Positions 1 through 62,317 of a stretch of DNA of 64,000 nucleotides are shown in pieces. Both the position numbers and the translations under genes were made by a program. How positions within the stretch are numbered: position 1 is the stretch's first letter; the number at the start of each line of letters is the position of its first letter. The notes below the pieces were generated by a model. That model made no database searches and was not told the DNA's origin. It saw nothing but the letters and a program-made list of their open reading frames with translations. Source of the stretch: an uncultured Dehalococcoidia bacterium (GTDB lineage Bacteria; Chloroflexota; Dehalococcoidia; DSTF01; JACRBR01); assembly GCA_964599885.1 (NCBI GenBank), contig CAZRHH010000004.1:9082-73081 (forward strand), in the 5' to 3' direction.

Positions 1-803
1 AGAATGGCCGGTATGGCGCCGATGATCGGGCCGATGATCGGCACCATCTCGGTGACGCCGGCGATGATCGCCAGCCCGATCGGATACTTCACGTCGAGCA
101 GCGACAGCGCGACGTACGCCATCGCGCCAATCAGCAATCCCTGCAGCAGCATTGCGCGGATGTAGTTGCGGAAGACGGCGTCGATGATGCCCAGCATGTT
201 CCGTACATCGTGCCGCCACTCGGGCGGAAACATGCCGACGAACGCCCGCACGCCGCGCGGGTGATCCTTCATCGTGAAGTAGAGCCAGACCGGAATCGTC
301 AAGTAACCGATGACGATCGTGAAGGTGCTGCCGGCGAACGCGATCGCATCCGGCGCCAGCCCTGCGGCCCAGTCGGCTGACGCGTCGCCGGCGTCTTCGA
401 GCCACTTGTCCGTCGTCTCCTGCTGATCTTCGGGCACGTACTCGTTGTAGAAGTCCTGCAGTTCTGTCCGCGCGTTATCGATCGTGTCCGGCAGGTTGTC
501 GCTGAACTCCTGGATCTCGTCAATGGCGTCCGGCAAGAAGAGAAAGCCGAGCCCTGTGGCGACGCCGGCTACACCCAAATAGAGCACGAGGATCGCGACG
601 CCGCGAGCGAGGTACGGGCGGGCGTGCCGGAAGGGCATCACGCCGGCGATCCAGCCGACCGCCGGCGCCATGACGTAGGCGATCGCCACACCGAGCACGA
701 ACGGAAACAGCGCGGTCCGCGCGTTCCAGGCGACGAACATCGCCAGCACGACCGGCGCGATGACCATCGCGATGCGGATACGGCGCCGTACGACCTCACT
801 CAT
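1..803 (-). CDS. AI-2E family transporter (PerM/YhhT-like permease), partial: C-terminus runs off the window edge
   Basis: Reverse-strand translation from ATG at 803 is hydrophobic and multi-TM. The last codons at the window start give ...AIIAGVTEMVPIIGPIIGAIPAIL, typical of the AI-2E/UPF0118 family. Confidence 0.7.
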   Translation of the reverse strand, partial: MSEVVRRRIRIAMVIAPVVLAMFVAWNARTALFPFVLGVAIAYVMAPAVGWIAGVMPFRHARPYLARGVAILVLYLGVAGVATGLGFLFLPDAIDEIQEFSDNLPDTIDNARTELQDFYNEYVPEDQQETTDKWLEDAGDASADWAAGLAPDAIAFAGSTFTIVIGYLTIPVWLYFTMKDHPRGVRAFVGMFPPEWRHDVRNMLGIIDAVFRNYIRAMLLQGLLIGAMAYVALSLLDVKYPIGLAIIAGVTEMVPIIGPIIGAIPAI

Positions 804-852
804 TGCCGATATCGTGCCGTACGGCGTGGGCGATGGGAAGTGGCGAATCAGG

Positions 853-890
853 AAACGAGAAGCGGGAAGCGGGAACGGAAGCGGACGGGG
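853..890 (+). repeat. GGGAAGCGGGA-type short tandem repeat block
   Basis: gaaacgagaagcgggaagcgggaacggaagcggacggg, in the intergenic region upstream of the NIF3 gene. Confidence 0.7.
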
Positions 891-985
891 ATGGGGAGTG
901 CGCGTATCGGTGGTGGCTGCTCGCGATACCGTGGCGGACACGGGGGTCCGCCCCTACCGTGACACACGGGCGATAGACTGACCGC

Positions 986-13568: not shown

Positions 13569-14051
13569 TCAGGCGGCGCTGAAGCCCGAGTCGAGTTCAT
13601 CGAGATCGGCATTGAAGTCGAAGATCAGCTGGATCGGTTCTCCCGTATTCCCGTTGTCGTTGAAACTGTCAGCGTCCGTCTTGAGCTGGTGGCAATCGGC
13701 AACGATACCCTGACGCCGCTGCTGAAGAGAAACCTCCATGTGTCCGCGCGATGCCGTGCGAATATCATCCCACATGCTCGCCTGCTCTCCCTTCTCGCGC
13801 TTGGGCAACCGAACAACGTGCTTCGTCCGCACGCGGCGCCCCTGGGCGTCAGTGTAATACTCATCCCGCAATGCCCGCGCAAACTGATCGACGCACTGGC
13901 GGATCAATGCTCCCGGCTGGGGCTTCCAGTGGTTGTTCGCGATCGCCCAGTTCGCTACGTCGCGCAGTGTGGTGGGACCGGCGATACCATTCTCGGCCTG
14001 GTATCGGCGGAACAGGCCCTGCATCTGCTCGTTGAACGTAGACACATTCAC
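13569..14051 (-). CDS. hypothetical protein (160 aa), third gene of the HigB/HigA-peptidase module
   Basis: GTG start 16 nt after the HigA-ImmA stop, on the same strand. No recognisable family; lower GC than the flanks. Confidence 0.5.
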   Translation of the reverse strand: MNVSTFNEQMQGLFRRYQAENGIAGPTTLRDVANWAIANNHWKPQPGALIRQCVDQFARALRDEYYTDAQGRRVRTKHVVRLPKREKGEQASMWDDIRTASRGHMEVSLQQRRQGIVADCHQLKTDADSFNDNGNTGEPIQLIFDFNADLDELDSGFSAA

Positions 14052-14067
14052 ATCCTTTGGCTGTTGG

Positions 14068-15210
14068 TTAGACGTTGCCCGGCAGTTGGGATCCCCAGCC
14101 GTCAGTCAATGTGGAACCGATAACGATTTGGCGGATCGGGACGAGCAGTTTTCGGAGGTTGGCGTAACTGATTTCATGGAGGTGCTGTAGTTGGCCAACA
14201 ACAATGCCAGCATGTACCCCCGTCGTCCGGGCGAAGTTGTTCACGCGAGTAGCAGAAAACAACGGTCGAACACGAAGAACAAAGTCATGCAGCTGTTCCT
14301 TCGGAATCAGTGAGTTAACGGCGAAATCATCCGCGCGCCGTTCCGCCTCCGACTTTTCGCCCGCCAATAAACGCACCTCGTTAACTATCTCCTGATCGAG
14401 GACTGTGCCGTCCTCAAACAAGATGTGGGCGATCTCGTGCATCAAGGTGTGCCAAAAGTGGTCGATCCTGTCGTACCGGAGCGAAAGAACCACGACAGGA
14501 GCGTTGTCGAGCCAGAAGGAAGCACCATCAATTTTGGTGCCAGTGAGAGCCTCAACCATCAGGAAGCGGACGCCGTATTCTGAAAGGAGTTTGGGTACGT
14601 GGCGGGCGTTCTCGGGTTCATTCGCCAATTCTTTCAGTTCCCGTACGAGGGCGGGCAACTGCGCGCGAGAAAATGATTGCGTTGCGACGGCGGGCGCGAG
14701 CTGTCTGACTCTGCAAAGCCACGCGAGTTGAGCCGGAGAAGGTTTCTCATCATAGGATGTTGATTTGCGTGCCGCGTGCGCAAACTGCGGTTCGTCATCG
14801 AGAGTATCGATCCTCAGAAACTCCAATACCGCCAGCTCCAAAGCACCAATGTCACGCGTATCCTCGATCCAGTTCCGGCGAATCATTTCCCGCACCGGTG
14901 CCTTTGCGTACAAGCGCGCTCGTCGTGACACGGTGTCATCACGGTTGACGCGCGAGAGCCGGTACATCGATTCGAGATTGAGCCAGTACTGCGCACTTCC
15001 GCCGAGCGCGTCAGCGAGTGACTGGGCCGTCTCCGGCGTGATCCCGCGCTTTGCAGAGAGAATCTCGTGGACAACTGTGGGGCCGCGGCCGAGAATTTCG
15101 GCGAGGTCTGTTTGCGTCCAGCCACGCGCCTCGAGCTCGTCCTGCAAGAACTCGCCCGGGGAGAATACCTCGGCCGGGATCAGGTGCTCATTGCTCCTCT
15201 CGTGATTCAT
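14068..15210 (-). CDS. higA: HigA-type XRE HTH antitoxin fused to ImmA/IrrE (COG2856) Zn-metallopeptidase domain
   Basis: The N-terminus (PGEFLQDELEARGWTQTDLAEILG...AQYWLNLESMY) matches the HigA/VapI HTH. The C-terminus has HEIAHILFED, an HExxH motif in ImmA/IrrE context. Its start codon abuts the higB stop. Confidence 0.75.
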   Translation of the reverse strand: MNHERSNEHLIPAEVFSPGEFLQDELEARGWTQTDLAEILGRGPTVVHEILSAKRGITPETAQSLADALGGSAQYWLNLESMYRLSRVNRDDTVSRRARLYAKAPVREMIRRNWIEDTRDIGALELAVLEFLRIDTLDDEPQFAHAARKSTSYDEKPSPAQLAWLCRVRQLAPAVATQSFSRAQLPALVRELKELANEPENARHVPKLLSEYGVRFLMVEALTGTKIDGASFWLDNAPVVVLSLRYDRIDHFWHTLMHEIAHILFEDGTVLDQEIVNEVRLLAGEKSEAERRADDFAVNSLIPKEQLHDFVLRVRPLFSATRVNNFARTTGVHAGIVVGQLQHLHEISYANLRKLLVPIRQIVIGSTLTDGWGSQLPGNV

Positions 15211-15507
15211 CTAGTGGTAATCCTCGATCTTTTTCACCAAGACGATCTTGTTGGGAGCCGCCCCGGTCAGCTCTACGATCAGCCGGTACTGGTCGTTCAG
15301 GCGGAGTGAATGCTCATGCTGCCGTTTCCCTGCTAGTCGCTCGAACCGCAACGCCGGTCGTGCGTATAAATCGCGCTCATCAACAGCTGCACTTATCGCT
15401 TGCGTCGTCTTACGAAATCCCTTGACTAGGGCGAGAGACAGTCCTGCCGTAAAGCCCTTCTCCGTGTAGAGCCTCGTCAGCTTGGCGTCCGCGAATTCCA
15501 TTTCCAT
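15211..15507 (-). CDS. higB: HigB toxin (COG3549 plasmid-maintenance killer, RelE/ParE superfamily)
   Basis: MEFADAKL...GKRQHEHSLRLNDQYRLIVEL...IEDYH matches the Proteus-type HigB C-terminal signature (…EDYH). Start taken at MEMEF; the longer ORF extends to 15606. Confidence 0.7.
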   Translation of the reverse strand: MEMEFADAKLTRLYTEKGFTAGLSLALVKGFRKTTQAISAAVDERDLYARPALRFERLAGKRQHEHSLRLNDQYRLIVELTGAAPNKIVLVKKIEDYH

Positions 15508-15641
15508 CGGTTCGGGCGATCTTATTCGATCGTCCGAACCAACGCAACTATAGTTATCATGTTCTGCAGGAAATAGCAATATAGTATCCTCACGTTTTCC
15601 GGACATCGTGAAGATGTCGATACTCCTCCCTCGCCACGCTG

Positions 15642-38241: not shown

Positions 38242-38874
38242 ATGCCGCCAAAACTCGTCATCGCCACCACGAATCAGGGGAAGTTGAGGGAGTTTCGCGA
38301 ACTGCTCGATGGCTCCGGCTTTGAGTTGGTGACGCCCGCTGACCTCGGGCGCGAGTGGTCCGTCGAAGAGACGGGGACGACGTTCGAGGCCAATGCCATC
38401 CTGAAGGCGGTGGACGCTGCCCGGGTGTGCGGTCTGCTGGCACTGGCTGATGATTCCGGGCTGGAAGTTGACGCGCTGGGCGGGCGCCCGGGAATCTTCT
38501 CGGCGCGCTATGCTGGTGGGGACCGAACGTCTGATACGCTGACCGAGCGCGAACAGGTGGCCATCCTCCTGGGCGAACTCGCCGGCGTACCAGACGTAAA
38601 GCGCGGCGCCCGATTCCGCTGCGTCATCGCCATCGCCAGGCCGGACGGCGGCGACGTGCAGACGGTGGACGGGGTGTTCGAGGGGCACATCGCGCACGAG
38701 GCGCGGGGCGAGTTCGGGTTTGGCTACGACCCGGTGTTCCTGGTGCCGGAGCTGGGCAAGACGAGCGCCGAACTGCCGGCGCACGAGAAGAATACGATCA
38801 GCCATCGTGGGCAGGCGGCGCTCAAGGCGCGCGAACTGCTGAGGATGATGTCGAGTGACCTTCCAACGATCTAG
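38242..38874 (+). CDS. rdgB: non-canonical purine NTP pyrophosphatase (dITP/XTP; RdgB/Ham1)
   Basis: [14 protein letters not shown]...[19 protein letters not shown](V)F. Confidence 0.9.
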
Positions 38875-39916
38875 CGGCCGACTACCTGACCCCGATACCG
38901 CGATCCCGCTCGTCGAGACGATCGACCGCTCGGGGCGGCCGCTGCGTGATCTGCGGATCTCGGTGACGGACCGCTGCAACTTCCGGTGCCGGTACTGCAT
39001 GCCGCGCGAAGTGTTCGGCGCCGACTTCGCGTTTCTGCCGCGCGCGGAGATCCTGACCTTCGAAGAGATCACGCGGCTGGCGTGCATCTTCGCGGCGCAT
39101 GGCGTGCGCAAGTTCCGGCTGACAGGCGGCGAACCGCTATTGCGTAACGATCTGCCGTCGCTCGTACGCATGCTGTCGCAGATCGCGGACGTCGACATCG
39201 CGCTGACGACGAACGGATCGCTGCTCGCGCAGCAGGCGCGCGATCTGAAGGCGGCGGGATTGCAGCGCATCACCGTCAGTCTGGACTCGCTCGATGACGG
39301 CGTGTTCCGCGAGATGAACGATGCGGACTTCGACGTGGCGCGCGTGCTCGAAGGCATCGATGCGGCCGCGGCGGCCGGACTGGCGCCGGTAAAGATTAAC
39401 GCCGTCATCCGTCGGGGCGTGAACGATCACACGGCCGTCGACCTTGCGCGGCACTTCAAGCGCAGCGGTCACATTGTTCGCTTCATTGAGTACATGGATG
39501 TCGGCGCCACGAACGGCTGGCGGCTCGACGACGTGGTCCCCGGCGACGAACTTGTGCGGATGATCGGCGCCGAGATGCCGCTTATGCCCGCCGAAGCGCA
39601 GTATCGAGGCGAGGTGGCGCAGCGCTGGCGTTATGTCGATGGCAGCGGCGAGATCGGGCTGATCACTTCGGTCACGCAGCCGTTCTGCGGCGATTGCACG
39701 CGCGCGCGGCTCTCCGCGGACGGCTCGCTGTATACGTGCCTCTTTGCCACGTCCGGGACGGATCTGCGCGGTCCGATCCGTGCCGGAGTGACGGACGAAG
39801 TCCTCGCCAGTATCGTCGGCGGCGTCTGGAACCGGCGCGACGACCGCTATTCGGAGTTGCGCGCCGAGTCGGCGGCGCCGCCACAGCGCATCGAGATGTC
39901 GTACATCGGCGGGTAG
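38855..39916 (+). CDS. moaA: GTP 3',8-cyclase (radical SAM)
   Basis: [14 protein letters not shown] (CxxxCxxC) and C-terminal MoaA Cys cluster. The start is uncertain; it overlaps the rdgB 3' end by up to 20 nt. Confidence 0.85.
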
Positions 39917-39925
39917 ACTGCTGCC

Positions 39926-40429
39926 ATGACGACAGAGTCCGACGAGGCATTCGGCAAACTCAGCCATATCGATGACGCGACGGGCCGCGCGCGCATGGTC
40001 GACGTCTCCGCGAAGGCCGACACAACGCGCGAAGCGACGGCGCGCGGCCGCATCGTCATGCGTCCCGAGACTCTCGCGCTGATCCGGCGCGAAGGCATGC
40101 CGAAGGGCGACGTCCTAGCCGTGGCGCAGATCGCGGGCATGATGGCGGCGAAGCGCACGCACGAACTCGTGCCGATGTGCCATCCCCTCCTGCTCACCGG
40201 CATCGAGGTGCGGCTGGAGCCGAACGTCGCGCGCCACTGCATCGAGATCGAGGCGACCGTGCGCACGACCGGTAAGACCGGCGTCGAGATGGAAGCGCTG
40301 ACTGCCGTGAGCGTCGCCGCGCTCACCGTCTACGACATGTGCAAAGCAGTAGACCGCGCGATGAAGATCGAGAACGTGCGGCTCGTGCGCAAGTCCGGCG
40401 GCAAGAGCGGAGCGATCACGCTGGAATAG
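39926..40429 (+). CDS. moaC: cyclic pyranopterin monophosphate synthase
   Basis: [14 protein letters not shown]...[24 protein letters not shown]. Confidence 0.9.
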
Positions 40430-56460: not shown

Positions 56461-58482
56461 CTAGCGCGCGCTGATCGCTTCCGCCACGTCGGCGAGGCCG
56501 AGCGATTCCAGTTTGCGCTTGCTTGGTGCGGCGGTCTCGGGATCCCAGTCGCAGGCGGCGAGGTAGTCCTGCTCGAGCGTTCTGGTGTCGAGCGAGATGT
56601 CCTTATGCGGGCCGGCTTCGAGCGGCGTGGCGCCCCAGATGCGGCCGGGGATGCGGCGCCTGGTGACGATGTCGCCTTCACGAATGTTGAACGCCATGCG
56701 CATGTTGGCGATGCGTTCGCCAACTTCCTTCATCTCGTCGAGCGACGTGTCCCAGCCGGTCGTGTGGTTGATCCACTCCGGGATGCGGTCGTTCGGCGCA
56801 CCCATCATGATGAACATGCACATGCCGGCGGAGTTGACGACGTGCATGTACTCCGATTTGCCCTTGTGGTGCTCGCCGCGCTCCGTCGCCTGCGTGCGGT
56901 CCTGTGGCGCCGGCGTCAGATTCCAGGCCGGCCGCGTGGCGCCCTCGTACTGGGTGTGACGCGCGGGCGTCGGGTCGAGCTTGTACGTCGTGAAGAACTC
57001 CGGCTGGAGCTTCGGGTCGTGCATCGGTAGCTCCTCGCCCCCGACTTCCATCGCGAACTCGATCGACTTCGGGCCGATCTTCGCGGACGCGGCTTTCACG
57101 CCGTCGCCGAAGAGTTCGCCGAGAGCGCCCTCCTTCGTGCCGATCTTGTGGAGCGCTTCCATGATCGCTTCGGTGTTGCCCCAGCGCAGGTCGATGCCGT
57201 CGGTGTCTTCCTTGGTGATCAGGCCGTTCTCGAAGCACTCCATCGCGAAGGCGATCGTGCCGCCGGCGGCGATCGTGTCGACACCGTACTGGTTGCAGAG
57301 GTGATTCGCGTACTGCAGCGAGTTGATGTCATTGCTGAGCATCATCGTGCCGAATGCGGTCGTCGTCTCGTACTCGGCGCGGTGCGTGTGGTGCGGGTAC
57401 GGGAAACGCGCGTCGTTCTTGATCTCGGCGTCGGTCTTGCTGTCGTTCTCGAGCTTCTTGATCTTCGCTTCGATGCCCTGCTTCTCGTCGTCAGCGGCCG
57501 AAGCGAGCATCGTGCGCAGCTCGTTCGCTTCGCCTTCGCGCTTGGAGATGCGGAGCTTTGCCTGGTTCTCCTGCTCGTCCCACGCGTAGGACTCGCCGCC
57601 ACAGGCGATGGGGCAGTGCCAGCAGGCGTACTTCTTGTCCATCTTGCGGTTGAAGTTGTCGCCGGACATCACCATGCCCTGCGGGAAATCGACCATGCCG
57701 ACGCCGCCCCAGTTCTTCACGGGCGCGTCGCCCGACATCGCCGACGAGTTGGTGATGCCGGTGGTGCCGTAGGTGCGGAAGAAGTTGGTGATCGGCTTCG
57801 CGAACTGGTCGAGCGACGAGCGGACGAGCTTCATCGCTTCCGGGCTGGAACCGATGATGTTCTTCGATGCGTTGACGACGATCGCCTTAACGTTCTTCGA
57901 GCCCATGACGGCGCCGAGGCCGCTGCGTGCGGCGAGACGGCCGCGCTCGTTGCAGATGCCGGCCATCAGCGAGAGTTTCTCGCCGGCGGGGCCGATGCAA
58001 GCGACGGAGGCCTTCTTGCCGTGGCGCTCCTTGAGCTTCATCTCGACATCGATCGCGAGCATGCCCCAGATGTCGGAGGCGTCCTTGATCTCGACCTTGT
58101 CGTCGTCGATGTGAATGTAGACGGGCTTCGACGACTTCTCGTACAGCATGATGCCGTCCCAGCCCGCGTTCTTGAGGAATGGGCCGAAGTCACCGCCGGC
58201 GTTCGCGTCGCCCCAGCCGCCGGTCTTCGGCGACTTGCCGACGGCCTGGTAGCGGATGCCGAAGAACGGCGTACCAGTCAGCAGCCCGGGAAACAGGCCG
58301 AGGATGTTGTCGGGGCCGAGCGGGTCGGCGCCGGCAGGGATGCGGTCGAAGAGCAGGCGGGAACCGATACCATAGCCACCGAGGTACTTGCGGTACATCT
58401 CCTCGGGGATCTGCTCGACTTCGGTCGTGCCGACGTTCAGCCGGACGTTCAGCATTTTTCCGTTGATGGCTCCATTGAGCAT
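56461..58482 (-). CDS. aldehyde:ferredoxin oxidoreductase family (tungstopterin-type AOR)
   Basis: Start MLNGAINGK preceded by GGAAGGAG. AOR N-terminal domain and tungstopterin-binding domains; a Glu/Lys-rich insert. Confidence 0.8.
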   Translation of the reverse strand: MLNGAINGKMLNVRLNVGTTEVEQIPEEMYRKYLGGYGIGSRLLFDRIPAGADPLGPDNILGLFPGLLTGTPFFGIRYQAVGKSPKTGGWGDANAGGDFGPFLKNAGWDGIMLYEKSSKPVYIHIDDDKVEIKDASDIWGMLAIDVEMKLKERHGKKASVACIGPAGEKLSLMAGICNERGRLAARSGLGAVMGSKNVKAIVVNASKNIIGSSPEAMKLVRSSLDQFAKPITNFFRTYGTTGITNSSAMSGDAPVKNWGGVGMVDFPQGMVMSGDNFNRKMDKKYACWHCPIACGGESYAWDEQENQAKLRISKREGEANELRTMLASAADDEKQGIEAKIKKLENDSKTDAEIKNDARFPYPHHTHRAEYETTTAFGTMMLSNDINSLQYANHLCNQYGVDTIAAGGTIAFAMECFENGLITKEDTDGIDLRWGNTEAIMEALHKIGTKEGALGELFGDGVKAASAKIGPKSIEFAMEVGGEELPMHDPKLQPEFFTTYKLDPTPARHTQYEGATRPAWNLTPAPQDRTQATERGEHHKGKSEYMHVVNSAGMCMFIMMGAPNDRIPEWINHTTGWDTSLDEMKEVGERIANMRMAFNIREGDIVTRRRIPGRIWGATPLEAGPHKDISLDTRTLEQDYLAACDWDPETAAPSKRKLESLGLADVAEAISAR

Positions 58483-58754
58483 GGACGAAGCTCCTTCCGC
58501 GTGTGTGGAGATGTGACGCTGCGCGTATCTGCGGGTATCGCTGTAGATGATGCTGGCCGCCTGAGTCTGAATCAAGCGGCGAGCGTGGCACAGTATAGAG
58601 TAGCCCGCCGTTACGCGCGTTATGTCGGTGCAGGCATGACGGGTGGTGTCGGGATGGGCGGCTGGTGTCTGGTGTTTGGTGGCTGGGAGCACCCATTCTG
58701 GCAGATCTATTGTTTGGCAGTTTTCCGTTTTTCGCAGTTCGAGGTTGTGTAGCC

Positions 58755-59877: not shown

Positions 59878-60177
59878 GTTGTGATTACCCGGAACGATGC
59901 GCGATTGCCTGACGCATCACGTCAGGATAGCGGGCGGGGAATCCATCCAGGCTTCGGCGCCTAGCGTGATCAGGTAACCGGCGAAGAGGAGGTGCCGTAA
60001 TTACCGGGTACGAAGCCGATATCGACGGCACGCTCACCGAAGTGAGCAGCATTCACGACGGATCGCCTGCGACGTTCGCCGGACTGGCGGTAGACTGACG
60101 CTCGCCGCCCGACCTCACGGATCCTCGTAGGACGGACAGCTCCGATCGGTAGATCGTAGAAACAGGAGGTCCCGGAC

Positions 60178-60912
60178 ATGCCAACCGCTATCGGCCGGAA
60201 CGAAGCTCAACGTCTCATTAGCGAGGAGCGAGCTCAGCTCGTAGAGGTGTTACCCGAATCGGAATTCGAGGAGAGCCACATTGAAGGAGCCCGCAACATT
60301 CCCTTGAAGCGCCTGGATCGCGACAGGGTCGGCGAGTTAAACGCTGCCTCGCCCATCATCGTGTATTGTCACGACTGCCTTTGAGACATGAGCGCACGGG
60401 CCGCGTGGCGGCTCGAAACTCTTGGCTTCAACCGGGTCTACCGTTACACGGCTGGTAAGTCCGACTGGTCCGGCAGCGGCCTGCCGATGGAAGGCAAAGC
60501 CGAAGGCCAACCCACCGCCGGCAGCATCATTCGTCGCGGTGTGCCGACATGCAGGTTGGATGAGCGTTTCGGAGAGGTTCGCGCCAGAGTACGTGCAGCT
60601 GGCTGGGACTCCTGTGTGGTGGTGGGTAGCGAAGGCGTAGTGCTCGGACGGCTCCGCAACGAGGTGCTTGAGGGATCCTCAGAAGTTGCAGTTGATAGTG
60701 TTATGGAGTCCGGCCCGACGACCATCCGGCCCGACGTCTCGCTTCAATCGATCGTCGCCCGCCTTCGCCGAAAGAACGTGGAACAAGTCCTCGTGACGAC
60801 GCCCGATGGTGAGCTGCTCGGCGTACTCTTTCGAGAAGACGCGGAGCGACAGGTGACGAGCGCAGATGCCGCCCCACATGATGACGAAGACGCATGCGAG
60901 TGTGGCGTATAG
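60178..60912 (+). CDS. rhodanese-domain plus CBS-pair protein interrupted by one in-frame TGA (60382-60384): candidate selenoprotein or nonsense pseudogene
   Basis: Track ORFs 60178-60384 and 60388-60912 are in the same frame, separated only by a TGA and a GAC. Together they read ...IIVYCHDCL-TGA-DMSARAAWRLETLGF... (rhodanese active-site loop), followed by a CBS pair. Confidence 0.5.
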
Positions 60913-60952: not shown

Positions 60953-62317
60953 TTACGTCAGGATCCCCGGCGGGGAATCCATCCACGCCTCGGCGCCTAG
61001 TGTGATGAGGTAGCCGGCAAACAACAACAACCCCGTGATCAGGTGGACCTGCACGTTTTTGCCCATCGACGCCATCAGCGTGTACGGGTCGCCGTAGTGG
61101 GCGCGGATGCCGCGGTACACGCTGAGCGCCATCGGCGCGGCGATCAGGGCGATCAGCGTCGGCCGCGGCAGCACGCCCGTCGCGCCGCCGATCGCCACGA
61201 CGGCGAAGGCGAGGATCGCTGCGACGAGGAAGCCGTTGGTGACGACTTCGGGCGAGAGGCGCGTCGGCAGCGTGCGCTTGCCGGCGAGGGCGTCGCTGTT
61301 GCGGTCGGGGATCTCGTTCACGTAGAGGATGAGCGCGATGAGGATGGCGACCGGGATCGATGCGACGAACGCTTCGCCGGACAGCGCCTCGCGCTGGACG
61401 ACGTAGGCGCCGAGCACCATGAGTGGGCCGAAGCCGATCGCCGTCGTGATCTCGCCGAGGCCGCGGTAGACGAGCTTGAACGGCGGCGCCGTGTAGAAGA
61501 CGCTGAGCAGCACGCCCGCGACGCCGATCGCCAGCAGCTCCCACGACGGACGCAGCGCGAGCAGCAGCAGCCCGACGGCGATGCCGACGGCGTAGGCGCC
61601 GATCGACACAGCGCCCATCTGCCGCAGCGTCACGAGGCCGCGCTGGATGACGCGTGAGCCGCCGCTGTACTGCGTCGGGTTGACGTTCGCTTCATCGGCG
61701 CCGGAGAGCGCGTCGAAGACGTCGTTCGCGGTGTTGAGGCCGATGTGGATCGCGCAACCGCCGAGCATCGTCAGGATCGCGAGCCACCAGTTGAAGCCGC
61801 CGTCGCGTGCGGCGACGGCGAGTCCGAGTAGAATCGGCACGATCGTCGCCGTCAGAAACGGCAGGCGAGTCGAGAGCAGTACGGTCCAGACGCGCGAGAG
61901 TCGCGGCTTGACGATGCGGCCCTGCTCTTCGGAAATCTGCGCGAGGTATGTGCGGGCCTGCTCGTTCGAGCGCTCGGAGTACTCGAAGAACGGCATCTCC
62001 TTCTCGTCCCAGCCCCAGGCGCGGGCGGGGCGGAAGATCGTCGCGCCGCTGTCATGACGTTCGGCGCGGCCGTGCATCGTCACGTAGCGGCGCTCGTCGT
62101 AGCCGGTGCCGGGCTGCGGACGGATGTGGCTGCCGATGACGTTGACGTCGCGGTCGGCGGGCACGGGCATGCCGGTGGGCGCGATGCGCACGACGCCGTC
62201 GGCGGCGTCGGACTCGAACGACGCGGGGATCTGCATCGGATAGCCGTCGTCATCGATCCACGTGAGCACGATGTGCGGGTACGTGCTGAGCTTCGTCAGC
62301 GCGACATCGATGTTCAT
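60953..62317 (-). CDS. PPOX-like flavin-binding domain fused to UbiA-family prenyltransferase (MenA-like)
   Basis: N-terminal ~140-aa split-barrel-like region, then eight TM helices with the aromatic prenyltransferase motif (NTANDVFDALSGAD, NDxxDxxxD). Confidence 0.7.
   Translation of the reverse strand: MNIDVALTKLSTYPHIVLTWIDDDGYPMQIPASFESDAADGVVRIAPTGMPVPADRDVNVIGSHIRPQPGTGYDERRYVTMHGRAERHDSGATIFRPARAWGWDEKEMPFFEYSERSNEQARTYLAQISEEQGRIVKPRLSRVWTVLLSTRLPFLTATIVPILLGLAVAARDGGFNWWLAILTMLGGCAIHIGLNTANDVFDALSGADEANVNPTQYSGGSRVIQRGLVTLRQMGAVSIGAYAVGIAVGLLLLALRPSWELLAIGVAGVLLSVFYTAPPFKLVYRGLGEITTAIGFGPLMVLGAYVVQREALSGEAFVASIPVAILIALILYVNEIPDRNSDALAGKRTLPTRLSPEVVTNGFLVAAILAFAVVAIGGATGVLPRPTLIALIAAPMALSVYRGIRAHYGDPYTLMASMGKNVQVHLITGLLLFAGYLITLGAEAWMDSPPGILT

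Follow-up and report, generated by a model that had tools for sequence, protein, structure and literature searches.

Organization of the rhodanese-CBS gene

The DNA described here is a stretch of 64,000 nucleotides (64 kb, the window) from contig CAZRHH010000004.1 of an uncultured Dehalococcoidia bacterium. The gene in question occupies a single reading frame at window positions 60178-60912 of the plus strand, whose sole internal stop, as read from the sequence, is a TGA at 60382-60384. This TGA is followed by GAC (60385-60387) and then by an ATG starting at 60388, and the two open reading frames (ORFs) 60178-60384 and 60388-60912 (ends including the stop) are two parts of the same frame. Public gene calls present them as separate pieces, a 'Rhodanese' ORF of 68 amino acids and a 'CBS' ORF of 174 amino acids; this split annotation is seen on the window's own contig (L001) as well as in close relatives. 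Read through the TGA, the frame is very probably a genuine and intact selenocysteine (Sec)-encoding gene for a protein of 244 residues, in which a rhodanese domain is joined to a CBS pair (Table 1).

The read-through product matches the Pfam family Rhodanese at residues 8-98 with 50.4 bits (cut-off 22.2) and the Pfam family CBS at residues 172-221 with 35.8 bits (cut-off 24). In the rhodanese part, the score above the gathering cut-off goes together with an alpha/beta fold and with a Cys that opens the loop after the central strand. The CBS part contains two tandem CBS motifs; Pfam recognizes one, and the other is seen in structure, as Foldseek aligned 113-124 columns with CBS pairs of known structure (MgtE, AcuB and ST2348). 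A preliminary description of this locus had reported two same-frame ORFs split only by TGA-GAC, which together give a rhodanese followed by a CBS pair; its coordinates agree exactly with those found here, and the Pfam and Foldseek matches bear out the domain order.

The active-site loop of the window protein follows the central strand IIVY and reads C64-H-D-C-L-U69, with a helix from D70 onwards, such that Sec69 stands last in a six-residue loop and caps the N-terminus of this helix. The preliminary description had placed the TGA in the catalytic Cys loop, which is right for the loop but not for the position, as Sec lies five residues after the canonical Cys64. An AlphaFold model was made of the Cys-form homologue P0002, which is 53-54% identical to the window protein; it reaches a pLDDT (predicted local distance difference test) of 94.8 and exhibits a strand at 61-64, a loop C65-x4-C70 and a helix from D71. 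The best match of this model in the PDB is 3NHV (root-mean-square deviation 1.5 Å over 107 residues), i.e., BH2092 of Bacillus halodurans (PDB 3NHV, 3O3W), the closest solved structure, with 32% identity to the modelled P0002. The loop of BH2092 is YC-WGPA-C, and its second Cys aligns with Sec69, whereas BH2092 is an all-Cys protein whose domain stands alone, lacks a CBS pair and has been assigned no function.

At 11 of the 160 homologous loci compared (see below), the canonical Cys position is itself a TGA, giving VY-U-x4-U (L002, L015, L022, L025, L042, L047, L057, L093, L098, L127 and L137). In these double-Sec loci, the extra UGA precedes the main TGA by around 15 nt and is 35 nt from the hairpin loop described below, i.e., within the range of 16-37 nt, and nine of the 11 possess a small extra hairpin whose loop contains the second UGA. 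The extra hairpin of L127, in which GACU/AGUC replaces GGCU/AGCC, looks compensatory.

Cysteines are also conserved in the CBS half (Cys125 in 95% and Cys146 in 88%). The acidic C-terminal tail with its CxC motif is found only in the small subclade of the window (L170, L169, L096) and in four of the double-Sec loci (L002, L015, L098, L127). By analogy, this tail recalls flexible metal-delivery tails.

Table 1. Positions in the window of the rhodanese-CBS gene, its parts, the flanking repeat and other genes referred to in the text (strand given where it applies).
Feature	Position	Strand	Remarks
Probable selenoprotein gene, complete	60178-60912	+	244 residues including Sec69; stop TAG 60910-60912
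Shine-Dalgarno sequence AGGAGG	60164-60169	+	8 nt before ATG 60178; read from sequence
Rhodanese homology domain	60178-60492	+	residues ~1-105; PF00581, 50.4 bits
Cys64 codon, canonical rhodanese catalytic cysteine (VYC)	60367-60369	+	Cys or Sec in 154/154 members
UGA, probably read as Sec69	60382-60384	+	last residue of active-site loop, C-x4-U
Putative bacterial SECIS hairpin, CGGGCCGC-GUG-GCGGCUCG	60397-60415	+	8 bp, triloop GUG
CBS pair (Bateman module)	60517-60843	+	residues ~114-222; PF00571 and Foldseek
Acidic C-terminal tail ending C240-E-C242-G-V (CxC)	60844-60909	+	DEDACECGV at 60877-60909
Left copy of 67-nt direct repeat	59919-59985		relic of 3' end of UbiA-family gene
Right copy of 67-nt direct repeat	60955-61021		3' end of live UbiA-family gene (60953-62317, minus strand)
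Aldehyde:ferredoxin oxidoreductase (AFOR_N, AFOR_C)	56461-58692	-	ordinary gene
MoaA and MoaC genes	38849-40429	+	pterin cofactor synthesis; ordinary genes
HigB-like toxin	15211-15606	-	in low-GC3 island
Helix-turn-helix plus M78/IrrE-type peptidase, antitoxin-like protein	14068-15210	-	in low-GC3 island
160-aa ORF	within 13569-15606	-	third ORF of low-GC3 island

Conservation of the TGA codon and of the downstream hairpin

The comparison at the DNA level comprised 160 homologous loci, 80 found by scanning GTDB with each species represented by one genome and 80 from metagenomes. The genome loci are found in Chloroflexota (including Dehalococcoidia, Anaerolineales and Thermomicrobiales), in Actinomycetota (Rubrobacter, Gaiellales, Acidimicrobiia), in Rokubacteria and Dormiibacterota, and in one metagenome-assembled genome (MAG) of Bacillota; all 80 possess TGA at exactly this column. 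The metagenome scan was seeded with Cys forms, and one of its search patterns required C or W at the column; despite this seeding, 78 of the 80 metagenome loci exhibit TGA and two TGC, such that TGA is present at 158 of the 160 loci. Other Dehalococcoidia and Chloroflexota MAGs contain one to three Sec-form copies each.

Among 57 full-length database homologues, the same column is occupied by Cys in 46 and by W, R or S in some others, within the motif VYC-x4-C-D-[ML]-S-x-R-A-A-W; in the Cys-only sets A3 and A4, Cys is invariant there. The pairing of Sec with Cys by which a bacterial selenoprotein gene is recognized is therefore found, and the comparison of the orthologue column proposed in the preliminary description favours Sec. 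A UGA conserved in orthologues is accompanied by conserved coding on both sides: compared to the nearest relative L170, the ratio of nonsynonymous to synonymous substitutions (dN/dS) is 0.19 in the part before the TGA and 0.20 in the part after it, with dS above 1. As far as can be judged from the sequences, the UGA is a conserved Sec codon paired with Cys in homologues, and purifying selection acts on the gene before and after it.

These findings bear on the reading of the locus as a pseudogene from a recent nonsense mutation of a Cys codon, which the preliminary description had offered as its alternative. TGA is indeed one substitution away from TGC or TGT, and public gene callers take it as a stop, but the codon is shared by loci across phyla, all closest relatives included, and is ancestral to the clade. 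With dN/dS around 0.2 in both halves, a dedicated and conserved hairpin downstream and no paralogue within the window, this alternative fails and is regarded as very improbable.

The protein search yielded two classes of relatives: full-length proteins of around 220-260 amino acids, 45-54% identical to the window protein, and many 'CBS-only' proteins of around 160-175 amino acids, 55-69% identical to it. The latter all begin with MS[AP]RAAWRLE, i.e., at the Met two codons past the TGA, and among the best 150 representatives of 50%-identity clusters, most begin at the Met after TGA-Asp and around 13 are full length. Together with the TGA at nearly all loci, these starts indicate that the family is predominantly a UGA family cut in two by gene callers. 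The same starts, hundreds of 'CBS domain-containing protein' entries in all, and the position of the ATG 3 nt past the stop might alternatively be taken for two real genes, a rhodanese fragment of 68 residues and a CBS protein of 174 residues that is produced by re-initiation at ATG 60388. According to the modelled structure, however, the cut would fall within the active-site loop of a compact fold and would remove around 40% of the rhodanese domain, whereas the Cys-form homologues are continuous proteins. Furthermore, about 39% of the Sec forms have D-L-S, D-I-S or D-V-S instead of D-M-S; as they lack Met two places after the TGA, there is no conserved restart codon. No Shine-Dalgarno sequence comparable to the AGGAGG of the first ATG precedes ATG 60388 (read from the sequence), which also argues against an independent start of the 'CBS-only' ORF. 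Two genes are hence highly unlikely, and we return to a single gene with an in-frame Sec codon.

Residues other than Cys at the column are W in five 'full-length' database homologues (P0006, P0008, P0011, P0012, P0030), R in P0027 and P0069, and S in P0033 and P0047. At L163, the locus carrying the gene of P0027, the Sec column holds AGA (around position 1475) and the hairpin is perfectly intact, from which AGA is taken as a one-base change from TGA. The W homologues may be cases of TGA translated under another code (code 4 or 25).

If these were gene calls under code 4 or 25, they could be cited in favour of a UGA decoded as a standard amino acid, be it through an alternative code (Trp or Gly) or through near-cognate read-through. 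Against this, TGA is the terminal stop of several genes in the window whose Pfam domains are clear, among them those with HemA and ALAD domains, and the genetic code is accordingly considered to be standard; the homologues have mostly Cys at the column, not Trp or Gly; and a hairpin of SECIS type (Sec insertion sequence) at the canonical distance is selected specifically in the UGA forms. Such decoding is regarded as extremely unlikely. A scan of the window for further same-frame ORF pairs joined by TGA was uninformative, as chance pairs are too many at 65% GC.

Concerning the hairpin, the core gggccgc-gtg-gcggctc at 60398-60414 comprises 7 bp, and an outer C-G pair extends it to the 8 bp given in Table 1. 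It starts 12 nt past the UGA, lies within the codons R74-A75-A76-W77-R78-L79-E80 and has a loop GUG closed by C-G, with a UGA-to-loop spacing of 20 nt and a minimum free energy (MFE) of -13.1 kcal/mol. For bacterial SECIS (bSECIS) elements, a catalogue of 2026, which reviews prokaryotic selenoproteomes, gives an apical loop of 3-9 nt on a stem of 4-16 bp, a G among the two nucleotides that open the loop (usually G[G/U]), a UGA-to-loop distance of 16-37 nt and an MFE of -7.5 kcal/mol or below (PMC13188914), and the window hairpin lies within all four of these limits. Thus, the hairpin of the preliminary description is real, somewhat longer than noted there, and situated at the bSECIS distance claimed for it.

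Synonymous sites were analysed in 150 unique Sec-form sequences and pairing in 141 unique 48-mers. Counted from the Sec position, the codon of Ala+6 is GCC in 150/150 and that of Ala+7 GCG in 149/150 of the unique Sec forms; Arg+9 is CGG in 149/149, and Leu+10 is CTC in 142 and CTT in 7 of 149, but never CTG. Arg+5 is encoded by CGA, CGG or AGR; its third base is a purine throughout and pairs with U of CUC. At the Ala, Arg, Leu, Gly, Pro and Val codons bordering the stem, synonymous entropy amounts to 1-2 bits, and the only variation in the stem itself is compatible with pairing (A-U/G-U and G-C/G-U). Since synonymous sites are frozen inside the stem and variable outside it, the conservation is not purely at the level of the protein.

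All seven inner pairs are canonical in 137 of the 141 unique Sec forms, whereas this applies to only 3 of 8 Cys forms, and synonymous codons that break the pairing occur in 1/141 Sec forms versus 5/8 Cys forms (Fisher's exact test, p = 6e-7). The five diverged Cys forms break the pairing by synonymous codons yet keep the residues R-A-A; in the Cys form of the cultured Carbonactinospora thermoautotrophica, four changes do so (CGC GCG GCC ... CTG). Among the unique Sec forms, the loop starts with G in 140/141, and the MFE is at or below -7.5 kcal/mol in 140/141. The scoring as a SECIS that the preliminary description had called for thus places the hairpin within the limits of the catalogue, with selection in the Sec forms but not in diverged Cys forms, and synonymous-site constraint marks it as selected at the level of RNA. 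Judged from these sequence comparisons, selection has conserved the hairpin at 60397-60415 as an RNA element with the geometry of a SECIS. Three Cys forms with TGC (L090, L130 and L164) keep the whole hairpin sequence, which suggests that they are recent Sec-to-Cys conversions in which the now useless RNA element is still kept.

In the Rfam searches, no family reached the gathering threshold in the window taken as a whole, and the segment 60100-61000, searched at E <= 10, yielded a chance match to CPEB3 only. Elsewhere in the window, the hairpin core has one unrelated match, which is at chance level.

With regard to a mechanism, SelB carrying Sec-tRNA(Sec) would recognize the hairpin by the G-U in its apical loop, with the ribosome positioned at the UGA 20 nt before it, and Sec69 would then be inserted at the UGA and close the six-residue loop opened by the canonical catalytic Cys64. 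The C64-U69 pair would probably cycle via a selenenylsulfide, or else chelate a soft ligand as a two-point binding site, and the CBS pair may serve as a nucleotide-sensing regulator. Confidence in any specific biochemical role is well below that in Sec coding.

Comparison with known selenoproteins

Rhodanese-related proteins are, as stated in the preliminary description, a known kind of bacterial selenoprotein: the 2026 catalogue lists five rhodanese forms, namely UxxS, UxxG, CxU (LYCAU), UxxG and UxxxxU (TsoB, a rhodanese/DsbD fusion), and among them neither a C-x4-U form nor a CBS-fused rhodanese is included (PMC13188914). No selenoprotein model of NCBIfam release 20 reaches its cut-off with the window protein, the searched literature contains no paper joining selenoprotein, rhodanese domain and CBS domain, and family members are named plainly 'CBS domain-containing protein' in GenBank.

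The nearest relative in logic is TsoB (NF045694; 'rhodanese form 5', UxxxxU). It shares a homologous rhodanese domain (residues 17-111 of the window protein against positions 60-163 of the profile), the x4 spacing of the redox pair in the loop, with U-x4-U also present at the double-Sec loci of the family studied here, and a link to DsbD, as CcdA/DsbD-like membrane proteins are neighbours at 14 of the 160 loci. Despite this similarity, there are differences: the window protein scores 32.6 bits against a TsoB cut-off of 805 and is therefore no TsoB member, it has a CBS pair instead of a DsbD domain, and the first loop position is Cys in 93% of the rhodanese-CBS members, the window included.

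LYCAU (NF041203; 'form 3', CxU/UxU) likewise consists of one rhodanese domain, and its Sec, too, follows the catalytic Cys within the active-site loop, whereas the spacing is C-x-U there and C-x4-U here, a CBS pair is lacking, and the window protein reaches 25.8 bits against a cut-off of 115.

Forms 1, 2 and 4 (PF00581; UxxS, UxxG) reportedly come from the surveys of Zhang and Gladyshev. They are rhodanese-fold selenoproteins recognized from a Sec/Cys pair plus a bSECIS, as is the family described here; their tabulated motifs, however, are without the upstream Cys and a CBS pair is unmentioned, whereas the window gene keeps the catalytic Cys and has Sec at +5. As a caveat, the sequence U-D-[ML]-S literally fits the 'UxxS' of form 1 (representative WP_010941598.1, from Geobacter), and the distinction from this form, which is drawn from the tabulated motifs, is tentative.

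Similar to the fdhF-type bSECIS of E. coli and the bSECISearch consensus, the hairpin of the window is short, lies within the coding sequence immediately 3' of the UGA, and has a small apical loop opened by G and then U, with a spacing within 16-37 nt; it differs in that no Rfam model matches it and no bulged U is evident. A further difference concerns bSECIS elements in general, which are usually dissimilar between genes (PMC13188914), whereas the stem of the window's family is nearly identical across several phyla. The family is apparently an uncatalogued rhodanese-CBS selenoprotein subfamily with a very well conserved SECIS.

Genomic setting, neighbourhoods and possible role

Two copies of a 67-nt direct repeat (Table 1), 87% identical and 1036 nt apart, flank the gene, one on each side. 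The segment between them holds only the rhodanese-CBS gene, and no integrase was found inside it. On the minus strand, the left copy still encodes LLFAGYLITLGAEAWMDSPPAILT*, matching the right copy in the stop and in 23 of 24 residues. The GC content at third codon positions (GC3) is 0.65 in the gene and around 0.75-0.92 in the other likely genes of the window, and a GC3 lower than that of the neighbours is also found in L169 and L170. From these features, the gene has the look of a cassette acquired by horizontal insertion, with its footprint in the 3' end of the UbiA gene; since the repeat copies have already diverged by 13%, the insertion would not be very recent. At six other loci (L063, L075, L105, L116, L117, L148), a tRNA-Thr(CGT) is situated directly upstream of the rhodanese-CBS gene, which may reflect integration at a tRNA gene.

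The local neighbours of the window gene (aldehyde:ferredoxin oxidoreductase, an S-adenosylmethionine (SAM) methyltransferase and the UbiA-family prenyltransferase) are uninformative on its function. The DnaN encoded in the window is 85-88% identical to proteins assigned to Dehalococcoidia. Elsewhere in the window, a low-GC3 island with three ORFs (13569-15606, minus strand) breaks a high-GC3 housekeeping region beside haem-biosynthesis genes.

Concerning the homologues, the genes adjoining the 80 genome loci include an ArsR-family regulator (19/80), the 'DF family (seleno)protein' NF049942 (10/80; 117.7 bits, cut-off 70), a true MerA (8/80; TIGR02053, 533 bits, cut-off 454), a CcdA-like membrane protein (8/80) and a TlpA-like redoxin (4/80). 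Over all loci, DF-family genes adjoin around 12%. MerB is found 0-40 nt upstream in L163, L166 and L024, and MerR regulators adjoin the gene in the two closest relatives. Taken together, MerA, MerB, DF-family or MerR genes are present in the flanks of 19/80 genome and 11/80 metagenome loci, several of them in operonic arrangement, and none in the window. These co-occurrences are far above those of random gene placement.

In L039, a Rubrobacter MAG, the DF-family gene directly upstream (630-947, plus strand) contains an in-frame TGA aligned to a Cys downstream of the GCPN motif, such that two UGA-containing genes stand side by side; in the seven DF-family copies caught by the motif pattern, the Cys of the GCPN motif itself is present throughout. 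At around 31 of the 160 loci (about 20%), a small Cys-rich protein is encoded 50-700 nt downstream (e.g., L044, 3432-3893, and L080). Its C-terminal part resembles LTCLKCHSSIDYCSFCDESRCGVAVCYGCLIEDLGETVAQPHDHGG, it has an in-frame TGA in L069, and it matched no Pfam or NCBIfam family.

Judged by these neighbours, a role in the detoxification of mercury or metalloids or in thiol-redox handling may be taken as a weak lead; since the neighbours cover only about a third of the loci, it is a lead and no finding. Quite tentatively, and with considerable doubt, it is conceivable that this uncatalogued and abundant family of soil Chloroflexota and Actinomycetota, with its Cys-x4-Sec (sometimes Sec-x4-Sec) rhodanese loop, might use selenium to handle Hg(II) or organomercury, or else some other soft metalloid or persulfide; its partners would be MerB, MerA, the DF-family selenoprotein and thiol-redox proteins of CcdA/TlpA type, and nucleotides would control it through the CBS pair.

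Several points weigh against an intact, Sec-decoding gene with such a role. Taken alone, the window hairpin has no excess stability: the fold of 66 nt has z = -1.13, equalled by 25 of 200 shuffles, which is not beyond chance in DNA of 65% GC, and the significance of the hairpin comes therefore only from the comparison with homologues. There, the argument for RNA consists of synonymous-site conservation and the Cys-form control with n = 8 only; double-sided compensatory covariation is absent from the stem among the 141 unique Sec forms, because the stem hardly varies. The link to mercury genes is confined to about a third of the loci and absent at the window itself, and the searched literature holds no experimental evidence of selenium incorporation for any family member. 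Finally, neither selA, selB, selD nor tRNA-Sec is found within the window: ARAGORN detected 0 tRNAs, and the Pfam scans found no SelA, SelB or SelD domain in around 50 ORFs. Likewise, the window and all 170 fetched loci together contain no tRNA-Sec but only tRNA-Thr and tRNA-Arg.

The lack of the machinery from the window matters because the gene looks imported. With its atypical GC3 and the insertion footprint, it could have arrived recently in a host unable to decode it, i.e., an intact selenoprotein gene stranded in a Dehalococcoidia-like host without Sec machinery, in which translation would stop at the UGA and the gene would be dead or decaying. Signs of mobility in the family (the tRNA-Thr genes upstream, the variable neighbourhoods, the low GC3 of L169 and L170) point in the same direction as the repeat-flanked segment. 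The gene exhibits, however, no frameshift, second stop or decay of the hairpin; low dN/dS in both halves at a dS above 1 to the nearest relative, the divergence of the repeat copies and the Sec-form copies in other Dehalococcoidia and Chloroflexota MAGs likewise speak against stranding, which we consider unlikely. The reading of an intact, Sec-encoding gene is thus retained.

For the family as a whole, hundreds of database entries for a 'CBS domain-containing protein' or a short 'rhodanese' are probably halves of one selenoprotein, and a family profile would mend these split annotations. Through this family, Sec is also seen to be used in soil phyla that have received little study (Chloroflexota, Rubrobacteria, Gaiellales, Rokubacteria, Dormiibacterota); neither these phyla nor soil are mentioned in the 2026 catalogue (PMC13188914). 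With its near-identity across phyla inside a conserved helix-coding segment, the SECIS stem represents a natural case of dual constraint by protein and RNA coding, and it offers a ready probe for recognition by SelB in these lineages. The Cys/Sec pair across the rhodanese loop and its natural Sec/Sec and Cys/Cys variants form a series in which selenenylsulfide chemistry can be compared. As merA, merB and a second (seleno)protein family recur beside the gene, they suggest a function that can be put to the test; if the family were indeed a selenium-based handler of mercury, part of environmental mercury resistance would be selenium-dependent.

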